Below the pieces are notes generated by a model that was not told the origin of the DNA, made no database searches, and saw only the letters and a program-made list of their open reading frames with translations. This document shows, piece after piece, positions 5,210 through 10,174 of a stretch of DNA of 24,000 nt. Origin of the DNA: Sulfolobus acidocaldarius DSM 639 (GTDB lineage: Archaea; Thermoproteota; Thermoprotei_A; Sulfolobales; Sulfolobaceae). Position 1 is the stretch's first letter; each line of letters begins with the position of its first letter. Location: the NCBI RefSeq assembly GCF_000012285.1, contig NC_007181.1:643370-667369 (forward strand), given 5' to 3'. Made by a program: the position numbers and the translations under genes.

Positions 5210-5434
5210 CGAAAAATAAGACGCGTTATTAAATACGACGACTATATTATACGTGAGATTAAAGGGTGGTATTATGTGTATAAGCCAGGGAATATGAACT
5301 ATGAGATAAGGGAAACTTACGTTGGTTCCTTAATTGATGTAATTAAGACTTACCTAAAATTGAAAGTTGGGGTATTAGGGGATACCCCTAACCCCACAAC
5401 GCCGGGGGTGGGATTTGAACCCACGCAGGGATAA
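5210..5434 (+). pseudogene. SSV-type (partitioning) integrase N-terminal fragment, int(N), reading into the tRNA-Ser 3' half
   Basis: The open frame from 5210 reads [74 protein letters not shown]. There is no ATG until 5294. The tail GVGFEPT is the reverse complement of the tRNA T-arm translated. The YYVY...YVGxLxDVxxTY pattern resembles what I remember of fusellovirus-type integrase N-termini. Confidence 0.5.
5351..5399 (-). terminator. imperfect hairpin plus T-tract immediately 3' of tRNA-Ser
   Basis: The inner stem TTAGGGG (5375..5381) pairs with CCCCTAA (5385..5391) around an ATA loop. It is extended by GGGG (5369..5372) pairing with CCCC (5392..5395). On the minus strand it is followed by TTTCAATTTT. 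Confidence 0.35.
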
Positions 5435-5483
5435 CCCTACTGGCTCTCAAGGCCAGCCCCTTGGACCGCTCGGGCACCCCGGC
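5400..5483 (-). tRNA. tRNA-Ser (anticodon UGA), class II, no intron, CCA not encoded
   Basis: Hand-folded cloverleaf. The acceptor GCCGGGG pairs with CCCCGGC, with discriminator G. The anticodon stem is CUGGC/GCCAG with loop CUUGAGA. The long variable arm is AGGG-UUAU-CCCU. The T-arm is GUGGG-UUCAAAU-CCCAC. Confidence 0.93.
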
Positions 5484-5510
5484 AGCATTATATAGATACT
5501 TTTTCACCCT

Positions 5511-6074
5511 TTAATACTTAACCGCTAGAACTAGTGAATAACCCTTGGCTCTCTTATAAACCTTCACTTCATTTAGAAACTTAGAAAATTCCGTAATAAC
5601 ATTTGCCTCTCCCTTATATACCACTACCTCTATTATTCCTCCAATTTCCAAACGTCTTCCTGCTTCTTCAGAAAGTCTTTCTATGAATTCTTTTCCTGCT
5701 TTTAAGGGAGGATTAGAATAAATTCCATTAAATTTTAGATCATTTGGCACATTTTCAAACAGATTACTTTTAATCACTGTTATTCTATTACTAAGATTGT
5801 ATTTACTAACATTTTTCGACGTAAAGTATATTGCTTTCTTATCAACATCGATCATGTAGACTTTAAGGTTCTGGTTTACAAGAGCAATGTATATACCTAT
5901 TGGTCCATATCCACATCCTATATCGGCTACAATTCCATGGTTAGGCAAAACTAAGTTCTCTAGCAAGATTCTTGTACCTAGATCTAGCTTATCTTTGGAA
6001 AATAAACCTCTACTACTTTCCAGGCTTAGAGGTATTCCGTTTACTACATCATTCACTATTATCTTTTCGCTCAT
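5511..6074 (-). CDS. class I SAM-dependent methyltransferase, RsmC/RlmG-like (MTS domain)
   Basis: SAM motif I VADIGCGYGPIG and motif IV NPPLKAG (the NPPxxxG of N2-guanine/N6-adenine methyltransferases). The start is 1 nt after the cbf5 stop, so it is co-transcribed with rpl14e-cbf5. Confidence 0.8.
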   Translation of the reverse strand: MSEKIIVNDVVNGIPLSLESSRGLFSKDKLDLGTRILLENLVLPNHGIVADIGCGYGPIGIYIALVNQNLKVYMIDVDKKAIYFTSKNVSKYNLSNRITVIKSNLFENVPNDLKFNGIYSNPPLKAGKEFIERLSEEAGRRLEIGGIIEVVVYKGEANVITEFSKFLNEVKVYKRAKGYSLVLAVKY

Positions 6075-6075
6075 C

Positions 6076-7102
6076 TCATTTCCAACTTTTTGGGTATATG
6101 TCTCTTTCCATAAAAATTCTTTTAGGCCTTATAACTTCGCCTTTTTTACCAGATTCTAATTGCTTACTTTCTACAATACTCTCTCCTATAGCCACAAGTT
6201 CACCCTTAAGAGTTAGAACCGCTACGTCTTGATTTTTACGAAAGTTCTGATAAGCCAGTATACCAGGTAGGTTTAATTTAGCCCCATATGTTATTGCGTT
6301 TACTGCCGTATCGCTCACTATAACTTTTGGAATTCCGCACACCCCGTACTCCATAGGGAGCAGAATTCTTCTCAACTCACTTTCATCTTTACAGTTTCTG
6401 TATAGGTATAATGATTCTGAAACTTCTTGGAGTGTAACCATATTAGTTTTTTCTGTAAATATACCAGACCTAATTCTTCTCAACTCTCTCATATGTGAAC
6501 CACAGCCTGCTATAACACCCACATCATGACACAATTTTCTCATATAAGTTCCTGCGTCAGACTGGACTCTTAGTAGTATTAGTTTATCCTGCATATCTAA
6601 AATATCGATAGCATAAATTCTCCTTTTTCTTATCCTTCTTTTCACTGAGGATCTTACTGGCGGTTTCTGATATATTTCACCTACGAATTGACTTATTATT
6701 TCTTTTAACTCCTTTTGGTCTACATTACAGTGCATTTGCAATAAGCAAATGTATTCCTTTCCACTCTTACTTATGTAATTCATTAATTTTGTTGCGTTCT
6801 CTAATCCTATCGGTAATACTCCTGTAACCTTGGGATTTCCCCACCCGTTATACGGGTTCTAGGGTTCCTCCATGTCCTGCTTTGGTAATGTTAAAAAGCT
6901 TTTTTACCCAATAAGCTACCTCATGGCTTGTTGGACCAGGTGGTTTATCTAAATTGATTATGGAGTTTTTTATCAAAGATTCGATTGGTCTCTTATCTGC
7001 ATAATAGCCAAATTTCTCTTCAGTGTCTTCTTCTCTCAAGATTTTCCATCTATTTTCATAACTACAAAAAGAATCTATCTTGTTTATAAATTCATAAATC
7101 AT
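6076..7102 (-). CDS. cbf5: H/ACA RNP pseudouridine synthase Cbf5 (TruB family), two exons joined by removal of a 22-nt intron
   Basis: Exon 1 (7102..6858) ends at ...LDKPPGPTSHEVAYWVKKLFNITKAGHGGTL. Exon 2 (6835..6076) begins DPKVTGVLPIGLENATKLMNY... and carries a C-terminal PUA-like region. The exons total 245+760 = 1005 nt, giving 334 aa plus a stop. Confidence 0.88.
6836..6857 (-). other. mRNA intron in cbf5 (archaeal splicing-endonuclease type); boundaries can slide by 1 nt
   Basis: The mRNA segment ACCCGUAUAACGGGUGGGGAAA (22 nt, not a multiple of 3) contains an in-frame UAA. Removing it restores GGTLDPKVTG. It contains the internal hairpin ACCCG-UAUAA-CGGGU. Confidence 0.7.
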
Positions 7103-7103
7103 A

Positions 7104-7394
7104 CTAAATCACAGGTATTTTCGGTTTAACTGCCTCTTTTATAAAATCAGTCAAACCTGATTGCTCTATAGCCTGTTTTACCTCTTGATCCGTTGCTCCT
7201 TTATTTATTTCTACTTTCTTGTCTGTTGGTTCAATATGAAGTATATTGACTCTTCTCCTTTTGACTCCATTAATCTCTTTTGGTCCTGTTACTAGAACAA
7301 AATTACTATCTATAATATCTACAATTACACATTTTTTACCAGCTTCTCTGCCTCTAGTTTTTACACAAATCCTACCAATCTCTATTGCAGGCAT
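7104..7394 (-). CDS. rpl14e: 50S ribosomal protein L14e
   Basis: MPAIEIGRICVKTRGREAGKKCVIVDIID...GVKRRRVNILHIEPT is the archaeal L14e (KOW-containing) sequence pattern. 96 aa. Confidence 0.9.
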   Translation of the reverse strand: MPAIEIGRICVKTRGREAGKKCVIVDIIDSNFVLVTGPKEINGVKRRRVNILHIEPTDKKVEINKGATDQEVKQAIEQSGLTDFIKEAVKPKIPVI

Positions 7395-7438: not shown

Positions 7439-10174
7439 TTACTGCCAGTACTTGCGTGTTCTTAAAAACTTTCTTTCCTCCTCAAGTAGACTCTCAAAAA
7501 ACCTGTCCTCTCCATCGCTGAGCTTATTAAGGACTTTCCCAATGTTATTTATTCCTACTCCTCTTGCACTCAATCCTATGGCAACATATTTTTTGTAAGT
7601 TGAAAACATTGATGAAATATTCTGAAGTATTTCAAATTTCTTTTTTTCGTTCTTCGAGATCTTTGAACCTTTAATGACCTTTTTAATAATTTCCACACTT
7701 TCTTTATCATCCTCATCAGTTACGGTTAAGAATATTGAGCCACACTTGGTACACCTATCCGGTACCTCAGCAGCATAATATATATTATTCCACCCGCACA
7801 CCATACAAATTATTTTAACCTTATTATTTAACAATTTACGTCTAAATATCTCTATCATTACTCCTTTTTCATCTGAATGTGCTGCAACAAATAGTTTGTT
7901 AAGGAATTCTTTAGCTAGTGGGGAGAAGCCTGGTACTTCTATACATTCCCAAGTAAGTCGAGTTAGGAATTCCCTAAGTGTTACATCATAGTTTTTATAC
8001 ATAAGTTCTTTCACTGCTTCTTCTCCAACTAAGGTATCAGTATAAGCTTTAAGGAGAGTCTGGGAGAATGTTATATCGGTTTTTTGTTTGTCTATAAGAC
8101 CGAATCTTTCCGCCTCAATCAAGAGTTTCCATTTATACTGTGGACTTTCTTTTATAGCCCTCTTCAGAAGGTCTTCAAATTCACTAGAACTTAGACTATT
8201 TAGTATTTTTATTGCCTTTGTAAATTCCTCCTTTGATACTGGAACTAAGGAGGCTATTGCTATATGATAGGGATCAGACCTATACGTAGTTCTCACTCCT
8301 TTTACTTGGGTTAATAAAAGTGATAATAACGCACCTAGGGTATTATTACCTCTACTTCCTAATCCTGCATGTAAAACTATTAGATCATTATTTATTTCTA
8401 CAAGGATTTTACTTTTAGTTGGAACAGGGTATCCTCGCCTTTTTTGTTCTTCTAGTAACGAAGAGATCTTTTCAAGTATTTCTTTCGGTAGGTCTATTTG
8501 ATCTCCTCTTTCTATTCTTTCAATATAATCATACACCTTAATGGAAATTTCTCTTTCAACTGGAATTGACTCACCAAACCAGCTTGGCAAGACTCCGCTT
8601 TTCAGTTGTGCGTTTTCGACATAAATACGATTTTCCTCTATTGATACTACTCTCCAAATTTTTCCTCCCAGTATGAATACGGTATTTTCATCCAGTGTAG
8701 CCACGAATTCATAGTCTAACGTTCCTATTTTAGTGTTAGAAATATGGTCTATGACTATGTAATCTTTTATAGAGTCTGGTATCATATTCGTACTATAATA
8801 ATATCTCCATAATCTTCCTGCCGGTGATATCTTATCTTTATTCTTTCTAATTATTCTTGCAGATTCAAGTATACTTAATGTTTCTTCAAATTCCTCTTCT
8901 GTTAAGTCGTTGTATTGAAATGATGATTTGATTAAGTTAAAGATTTCTTTCTTATCTGTAATGCCTTCTAGTACTAGACCTGCAATTTCGTGTGCCATAA
9001 CATCATAAGGTTTAGGTTCTACTATTGGTTTTTCTAGGTATCCTTCCTTTAAATTGTCAATTATACTTTTACATTCTAATATGTCAAAAATATCATGAGA
9101 AGGTAATAGAAAACCACTAGAAACTTTATTTATTGAATGTCCACTTCTTCCAATTCTTTGTACAAGTCTTATAACTTGCTTTGGAGAGGTATATTGAATT
9201 ACTGCATTAATTGTTCCTACATCTATTCCAAGTTCTAAGCTTGAAGTGGCTATTAATGCGTCAAGATTGCCAGTCTTAAATTCTTTTTCAGCTTCTAATC
9301 TTATTTCTCTCGATAGAGAGCCATGATGTGTTCTCACTTTTAGTTGAGACAATTTTGACAATTCGGAGGCTAGAAATTCTGTACTCTCTCTAACGTTAGT
9401 GAAAACAAGAACTGGTTTATTCTCTTTTATCAATTTTTCAAGTTCTCTTATTCTAGCCAGCGTATCTGGATGTAAGCCTGTCTTATATGATAACTCAGCA
9501 AGATCCTTTGAAACTGTTGGTATGACCAACTCTATTTTTACATCTTTTCTGGTATTGTATTCGGCGACCTCTACGTTCCTTCCAATAAACCTCTTCGCTA
9601 ATTCAATATCGCCTATTGTTGCTGAAAGTCCAATCAGTTGAATCTCATACTTACTTAACCTCTTTAATCTTTGAATAGCTAAAAGTAATTCATAACCCCG
9701 TTTCTCATCAAGCATTTCTTGTAATTCATCTATAATGATCCATCTTATATTTCCTAATAATTCTCTCATTTTCTGGTTTACTAGTAAATAGAGCAATGTT
9801 TCAGGTGTTGTTAGAAGTAAATCAGGTGGATCTTCCAAGATCCTTTTTCTTTGCCTCTCCGTTGAATCTCCGTGTCGAATCGCTATTTTTATTCCTAATG
9901 CGCTACCTATCCTACTTAATCTATCTTCAAGATCTCTATTTAATGCTCTTAATGGAGTAATATATATAGCAGAAATTTTCTCAGCATTTGAGCTTAGTAT
10001 TTTATAAAAAACTGGGAAAATAGCAGTTTCTGTTTTTCCAAAGCCAGTCGGTGCAATAACAATAGTGTTCTTACCCTTGAGTATAATTGGTATTCCTATT
10101 TTTTGTATAGGGGTAAGACTCTTATAGCCAAGTTCGTTCAACTTATTGATAAATGTCTGAGAAACACTTATCAT
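7439..10174 (-). CDS. lhr: Lhr-type large SF2 helicase with C-terminal zinc ribbon
   Basis: Motif I PTGFGKT, motif II IIIDELQ, motif III LSATIG, then HHGSLSREIRLEAEKEFKTG, ATSSLELGIDVG and motif VI QRIGRSGH. This is the Lhr-family order. It is followed by a long Lhr-associated C-terminal region and CMVCGW...CTKCGS. Confidence 0.85.
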   Translation of the reverse strand: MISVSQTFINKLNELGYKSLTPIQKIGIPIILKGKNTIVIAPTGFGKTETAIFPVFYKILSSNAEKISAIYITPLRALNRDLEDRLSRIGSALGIKIAIRHGDSTERQRKRILEDPPDLLLTTPETLLYLLVNQKMRELLGNIRWIIIDELQEMLDEKRGYELLLAIQRLKRLSKYEIQLIGLSATIGDIELAKRFIGRNVEVAEYNTRKDVKIELVIPTVSKDLAELSYKTGLHPDTLARIRELEKLIKENKPVLVFTNVRESTEFLASELSKLSQLKVRTHHGSLSREIRLEAEKEFKTGNLDALIATSSLELGIDVGTINAVIQYTSPKQVIRLVQRIGRSGHSINKVSSGFLLPSHDIFDILECKSIIDNLKEGYLEKPIVEPKPYDVMAHEIAGLVLEGITDKKEIFNLIKSSFQYNDLTEEEFEETLSILESARIIRKNKDKISPAGRLWRYYYSTNMIPDSIKDYIVIDHISNTKIGTLDYEFVATLDENTVFILGGKIWRVVSIEENRIYVENAQLKSGVLPSWFGESIPVEREISIKVYDYIERIERGDQIDLPKEILEKISSLLEEQKRRGYPVPTKSKILVEINNDLIVLHAGLGSRGNNTLGALLSLLLTQVKGVRTTYRSDPYHIAIASLVPVSKEEFTKAIKILNSLSSSEFEDLLKRAIKESPQYKWKLLIEAERFGLIDKQKTDITFSQTLLKAYTDTLVGEEAVKELMYKNYDVTLREFLTRLTWECIEVPGFSPLAKEFLNKLFVAAHSDEKGVMIEIFRRKLLNNKVKIICMVCGWNNIYYAAEVPDRCTKCGSIFLTVTDEDDKESVEIIKKVIKGSKISKNEKKKFEILQNISSMFSTYKKYVAIGLSARGVGINNIGKVLNKLSDGEDRFFESLLEEERKFLRTRKYWQ

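Follow-up and report, generated by a model that had tools for sequence, protein, structure and literature searches.

A cbf5 gene split between two frames

The window, by which we mean the whole 24,000-nucleotide stretch of Sulfolobus acidocaldarius DSM 639 DNA that was analysed, carries cbf5 on the minus strand as two open reading frames (ORFs). According to the ORF list and its translations, one spans 6848..7102 and encodes 84 amino acids (aa), and the other spans 6076..6783 and encodes 235 aa. The initial annotation had read them as the N- and C-terminal parts of Cbf5, and matches to the NCBIfam Cbf5 equivalog NF003280 bore this out, with the 84-aa ORF covering profile positions 3-68 and the 235-aa ORF covering positions 86-319. 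On the Cbf5 family model, the two pieces abut at profile position ~68. The 84-aa product ends in ...AGHGGTLEPV, followed by a TAA stop at 6850-6848 (-), and the upstream extension of ORF 6076..6783 (-) in its own frame reads PKVTGVLPIGLENATKLMNY.

Deleting 22 nt (6836..6857) joins exons of 245 and 760 nt into a 1005-nt coding sequence (CDS), which encodes a 334-aa Cbf5 with the motif GGTLDPKVTG. This recomputation returned what had been proposed from the letters alone, namely a 22-nt insert within the codon of the catalytic Asp, the removal of which leaves a 1005-nt CDS with that motif. Deleting 6837..6858 produces an identical mRNA because an A flanks both junctions; the splice register is indeed fixed to within 1 nt, as had been claimed. 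The coordinates below follow the bulge-helix-bulge (BHB) cleavage rule, which is given in the next section.

6859..7102, minus strand: cbf5 exon 1, 244 nt, from M1 through GGTL to the start of the Asp codon (ends CUAG); based on the ORFs, NF003280 and structure 2aus
6837..6858, minus strand: 22-nt BHB intron, AACCCGUAUAACGGGUGGGGAA; register from the cleavage rule, with 22 bp also listed for DSM 639 in PMC2738675
6076..6836, minus strand: cbf5 exon 2, 761 nt including the TGA stop; based on NF003280 positions 86-319 and Cbf5 structures

The in-frame UAA at 6850-6848 (-) lies inside the 22-nt intron. The first base of exon 2, an A, follows the final G of exon 1 and, together with U6835, forms GAU (Asp). 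Exon 2 then codes for PKVTGVLPIG... and continues through the C-terminus, the PUA domain included.

Comparison with solved structures located the split precisely. In 2aus, a structure of P. abyssi Cbf5, exon 1 aligns with residues 25-83 and reaches as far as the GGTL Leu; read unspliced, it places its Glu opposite the GGTLDP Asp. The Pro after this Asp is where exon 2 starts, and exon 2 aligns from residue 83 in the Pyrococcus Cbf5 structures and from residue 103 in 2apo. Because exon 1 stops at Leu and exon 2 begins at Pro, the split codon supplies exactly one residue, the catalytic Asp. Set against uninterrupted Cbf5 proteins of four lineages in the same order that have no intron, the spliced Cbf5 is collinear and 48-50% identical, and none of the four alignments has a gap within 40 residues of the junction. 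An insert at the GTL-D-P codon that leaves a collinear product on removal is one of the features that place this element among the crenarchaeal cbf5 BHB introns.

Several observations were made on the neighbouring genes. A tight operon on the minus strand is formed by 7104..7394, cbf5 (6076..7102) and 5511..6074. The gene at 7104..7394 encodes a 96-aa KOW-motif protein, with its stop 1 nt before the cbf5 ATG (7102); it is probably ribosomal protein L14e, the KOW motif being the feature on which this was judged. The gene at 5511..6074 encodes a 187-aa MTS-type small-domain methyltransferase (PF05175, 1e-33), and its ATG lies 1 nt after the cbf5 stop. All three operon genes relate to the ribosome or to RNA modification. 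Directly upstream of the L14e-cbf5 operon, 7439..10174 (-) encodes a 911-aa Lhr-type large helicase with DEAD, Helicase_C, WH_Lhr and DEAD_assoc domains. On the other side, 5399..5484 (-) is a tRNA-Ser(UGA) scoring 58.7 bits in Rfam, in which ARAGORN called no intron.

RNA fold, predicted cut sites and splicing enzymes

The structural elements identified around the insert are as follows.

6865..6868, minus strand: outer helix, 5' strand GGAA (GGGA in most relatives); 83% of cells are paired across relatives
6861..6864, minus strand: central BHB helix, 5' strand CCCU, inside ACC CUA (Thr-Leu); partner strand GGGG, 6842-6839
6858..6860, minus strand: 5' bulge AGA; predicted cut between G6859 and A6858; AGA invariant in 20 of 20 genomes
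6843..6857, minus strand: inner hairpin ACCCGU-AUA-ACGGGU, 6 bp, from folding; all five counted pairs doubly changed among relatives
6839..6842, minus strand: central BHB helix, 3' strand GGGG, intronic and non-coding; from fold and alignment
6836..6838, minus strand: 3' bulge AAA; predicted cut between A6837 and A6836; NNA in 20 of 20 genomes
6832..6835, minus strand: outer helix, 3' strand UCCC, at the start of exon 2; from alignment and folding

The minimum-energy fold of 6820..6875 contains the 4-bp CCCU:GGGG helix, the AGA bulge and the inner hairpin. Directly 3' of GGGG lies an unpaired AAA (6838-6836), followed by UCCC, which is able to pair with the GGA(A) upstream of CCCU. On the cbf5 strand (-) this gives the BHB layout, with one 3-nt bulge on each side of the stem and 4 bp between the two. 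The outer helix of S. acidocaldarius is imperfect; it contains an A.C mismatch unless GGA:UCC pair in a shifted register, which leaves a 1x3 or 4x3 internal loop; these outer-helix alternatives were estimated at -15.7 and -16.1 kcal/mol, against -13.1 kcal/mol without the outer helix. In this species the outer and central helices do not run on from one another, so that AAA falls short of a clean canonical 3' bulge. Owing to this imperfect outer helix, the S. acidocaldarius cbf5 motif is a relaxed BHB. The elements of a BHB, strict or relaxed, were found at the site: two 3-nt bulges, the 4-bp helix between them, and inner and outer helices, of which the outer one is weak.

The initial annotation had suggested folding the region around the site as a check, and the fold of 6820..6875 yielded a relaxed BHB there. 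Its 5-bp hairpin ACCCG-UAUAA-CGGGU is present, and the fold extends it to 6 bp; its placement of the 5' junction in a bulge between CCC:GGG and that hairpin agrees with the AGA bulge. It had found no canonical BHB foldable by eye at the 3' junction, a conclusion we revised, since AAA (6838-6836) is the second bulge of the relaxed motif.

BHB introns are cut between the second and third bulge residues (Yokobori et al. 2009, PMC2738675), and cbf5 introns have been described with a relaxed BHB (PMC2738675). Applied to this fold, the rule cuts at AG/A and AA/A, removes 6837..6858 and joins CUAG to AUCCC, giving CUA GAU CCC (Leu-Asp-Pro); the predicted spliced junction reads ...CCCUAG-AUCCCAAGG... 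The interval 6836..6857 of the initial annotation describes the same mRNA, but the rule sets the intron at 6837..6858, one base upstream. In S. acidocaldarius, and likewise in all 20 of the related loci compared below, the cut sites between the second and third bulge residues coincide with the exon borders that restore the frame.

We also estimated how often such a motif arises by chance. A loose BHB geometry, defined as a 4-bp helix, a 3-nt bulge and a further helix of 4 bp or more, was not enriched in the 24-kb window (605 matches versus 745 +/- 35 in shuffles). Chance yields this loose geometry in abundance, so the geometry by itself carries no weight as evidence. A strict definition demanded a central helix with three or more G:C pairs, an inner helix of 5 bp or more, three or more of them G:C, and a length of up to 40 nt. 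The strict scan of the window returned two matches, against 0.175 in shuffled windows: the cbf5 site, which was the only sense-strand match, and the antisense of the tRNA-Ser. For a fixed site and length, the chance of a match is ~3e-4 under the loose and ~1e-7 under the strict definition. What matters is that the motif coincides with the only register that restores both the frame and the Asp. The local fold energy was unexceptional relative to shuffles (z = -1.5 and -0.6) and gives no support for the motif. A separate observation concerns the antisense tRNA-Ser match, at 5401..5444 (+), in which the tRNA's own stems are read backwards; it is a false positive for BHB scans.

A search of 6700..7000 against the Rfam families returned no match at E <= 1 at the cbf5 site. 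A self-splicing group I or group II intron, or another described RNA family, was rejected on this result, and a 22-nt intron is also far below the size of a ribozyme.

The genes expected for this type of splicing are present in the genome, all of them outside the window. EndA alpha, the catalytic subunit, is a 181-aa protein with PF02778 and PF01974 that matches TIGR00324 at 83 bits (cut-off 59.6). EndA beta is a 91-aa protein that matches NF007086 at 163 bits (cut-off 101), and RtcB was found through PF01139 at 580 bits. As judged from these profile matches, the three proteins supply both subunits of a heterotetrameric endonuclease of the crenarchaeal kind, and the ligase. The host hence encodes a hetero-oligomeric endonuclease (alpha and beta) together with an RNA ligase.

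Conservation in Sulfolobaceae and across the order

A DNA search of 40 relatives provided 20 Sulfolobaceae loci, S. acidocaldarius itself counted. In all 20, the Asp codon is interrupted between GA and Y, at one and the same nucleotide, by an insert of 18-32 nt, and the same BHB layout recurs in each. The third base of the 3' bulge, which is the second base of the Asp codon, is always A (20/20).

Among 19 distinct sequences the central helix is paired in 100% of cells, and a single locus (L017) carries a double compensatory change, to CUCU:GGAG. Across the 20 loci the inner helix varies freely in sequence yet stays paired, through A-U, G-C, U-A and C-G exchanges. RNAalifold, run with no structure supplied, recovered both the central and the inner helices. 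Pairs were counted on a MAFFT alignment of the 20 genomes (A1), in which 93% of cells are paired and six pairs are changed on both sides. The covariation score of A1 was 0.266 versus 0.115 for shuffled alignments, with 0 of 500 shuffles reaching 0.266, and when the pairing partner was slid by 1-3 columns only 33-63% of cells remained paired. The structure is kept by compensatory change in the related genomes. The initial annotation had also proposed aligning the site with the cbf5 introns of other Sulfolobales; in the 20 Sulfolobaceae this alignment revealed the shared site, the shared layout and the covariation.

Longer introns, of 31-32 nt, occur at three loci: L013 and L014 (genomes G008 and G018, genus g8) and L004 (G007). 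The interior of these introns folds into an extended hairpin or a second one, as in GAGGGUU-AAACCCUC. These three loci show that the interior of the intron can grow and shrink with the BHB core fixed.

We then considered the order as a whole through a profile search for cbf5 across 91 of its genomes. In about 50 of the 91, cbf5 is split at profile position ~67-68. A full-length cbf5 with one or two in-frame stops was found in 17 of the 91, a pattern that would fit introns with lengths divisible by three. The remaining pattern, an uninterrupted cbf5, was seen in 21 of the 91 genomes, namely every genome sampled from families f2 and f10 and some of those from f7 and f8. The distribution agrees with the published picture of one intron gain followed by lineage-specific losses.

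One genome of this set, G029, has two full-length cbf5 matches of equal score, at G029:C2:34093-35082 (+) and 36791-37780 (-), in inverted orientation and ~1.7 kb apart on a single contig. Each of them contains one in-frame TAG. An inverted duplication could account for the pair, as could an error of assembly.

A published intron and its alternatives

The cbf5 insert is almost certainly the published pre-mRNA intron of S. acidocaldarius, of the tRNA-splicing type. Under this explanation, the transcript would carry the 22-nt insert, with its UAA stop, inside the catalytic Asp codon, and the RNA around it would fold into the outer helix, CCCU:GGGG, the bulges AGA and AAA and the inner hairpin, that is, a relaxed BHB. 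The alpha2-beta2 EndA, which also removes tRNA introns, would cut after the second base of each bulge, a cleavage that we take from the literature. RtcB, which we infer to be the ligase in this case, would join ...CUAG to AUCCC... and so create the GAU (Asp) codon. Translation would then give a single Cbf5 of 334 aa, which serves the H/ACA RNP as its pseudouridine synthase. The BHB layout, the covariation and the EndA genes upheld the proposal of the initial annotation that cbf5 carries an EndA-type (BHB) pre-mRNA intron.

We weighed three other accounts of the two frames. A naive reading does break the frame, with a UAA after GGTLEPV, and could suggest that cbf5 is a pseudogene killed by a 22-bp insertion in this strain. 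However, all 20 Sulfolobaceae loci share the insertion site to the nucleotide, the exons on both sides are intact, and the helices of the insert show compensatory changes; no second copy of cbf5 was seen in the genome, where the other NF003280 matches are weak and partial, and a cDNA of the spliced form has been published (PMC2738675). The probability of a pseudogene is in our estimate vanishingly small. The ribosome might instead bridge the frames by programmed frameshifting or translational bypassing, without RNA splicing. The ORFs overlap or abut in different frames, and the stable hairpin in the gap could in principle act as a recoding signal, but a simple frameshift cannot yield the catalytic Asp; it would give GTLEP... 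or extra residues. Exact removal of the 22 nt alone makes the product collinear with the intron-free homologues. The length of the insert, 18-32 nt among the relatives and multiples of three elsewhere in the order, suits excision rather than a fixed frameshift, and the arrangement of bulges and helices fits an EndA substrate with its cut sites in the right register. Recoding of this kind is consequently very improbable, if marginally less so than the pseudogene.

Split genes occur in some archaea, for example in Nanoarchaeum. With this precedent, and with an internal ATG at 6783 in the second ORF, cbf5 could be imagined as a truly split gene from which an 84-aa and a ~235-250-aa polypeptide assemble into an active enzyme. 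Both pieces, however, would be without the catalytic Asp: exon 1 ends ...TLEPV*, and the ORF that starts at the ATG begins 17 residues past the motif. At the break there is no conserved ribosome-binding or promoter logic, and the conserved feature is an RNA structure. We attach practically no weight to such a split enzyme.

The intron explanation is also the one already in print for this strain. Yokobori et al. (2009; PMC2738675, Additional file 1) list a 22-bp cbf5 intron and the cDNA AB245526 for DSM 639. As reported in PMC2738675, Yoshinari et al. (2006, BBRC 346:1024) had shown that splicing takes place in S. acidocaldarius and that the hetero-oligomeric endonuclease carries out the cleavage. 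Two primers given as specific to S. acidocaldarius, P-1663 and P-1747 (PMC2738675, Additional file 2), match the window exactly, at 6720-6749 and 6416-6445, and over its legible stretch the S. acidocaldarius row of the Cbf5 alignment in PMC2738675 agrees with the Cbf5 of the window. A Cbf5 intron is also mentioned in the S. solfataricus circular-RNA data of Danan et al. (2012, PMC3326292). The intron was thus already known, having been published for DSM 639 between 2006 and 2009. The initial annotation was right that the class is known (Watanabe et al. 2002), but the precedent is not confined to other species, since it includes DSM 639.

Compared with the published DSM 639 intron (AB245526), the insert is in the same organism, gene and Asp-codon site, with the same length of 22 nt, the same relaxed BHB and the same cut sites; we found no difference, and the two are the same object. 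The other cbf5 introns of Sulfolobales and Desulfurococcales (Watanabe et al. 2002, FEBS Lett 510:27; PMC2738675) share the insertion point, CCCU:GGGG, AGA and the dependence on a heteromeric EndA. Published cbf5 intron lengths range from 16 to 44 nt (PMC2738675), against 18-32 nt in the 20 Sulfolobaceae examined here. The S. acidocaldarius intron differs from the others in the sequence and length of the inner hairpin and in having GGAA in place of GGGA, which makes for a weaker outer helix. Archaeal tRNA and rRNA BHB introns have the same motif, two 3-nt bulges 4 bp apart, and depend on EndA and RtcB, as relayed in PMC2738675 from Marck and Grosjean (2003). Unlike them, the cbf5 intron resides in an mRNA without a tRNA body, and it interrupts coding sequence, so that splicing decides whether the active-site codon exists.

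The cbf5 intron is a textbook archaeal protein-coding intron in the strain in which it was demonstrated, and it is not a discovery. For annotation, it warns that cbf5 in Sulfolobales is prone to being split or "pseudogenised" by gene callers. It also offers a clean positive control for BHB-intron scans of other archaeal mRNAs, and the 20-genome alignment A1 exemplifies genuine covariation.

A further reading, speculative and in our judgement quite unlikely, is that the splicing that creates the Asp acts as a checkpoint. Active Cbf5, and with it rRNA and tRNA pseudouridylation, would then be coupled to the EndA/RtcB capacity of the cell; the relaxed outer helix would tune the efficiency of splicing, and unspliced mRNA would give the 84-aa fragment. 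If this were true, the cbf5 intron would be more than a tolerated relic.
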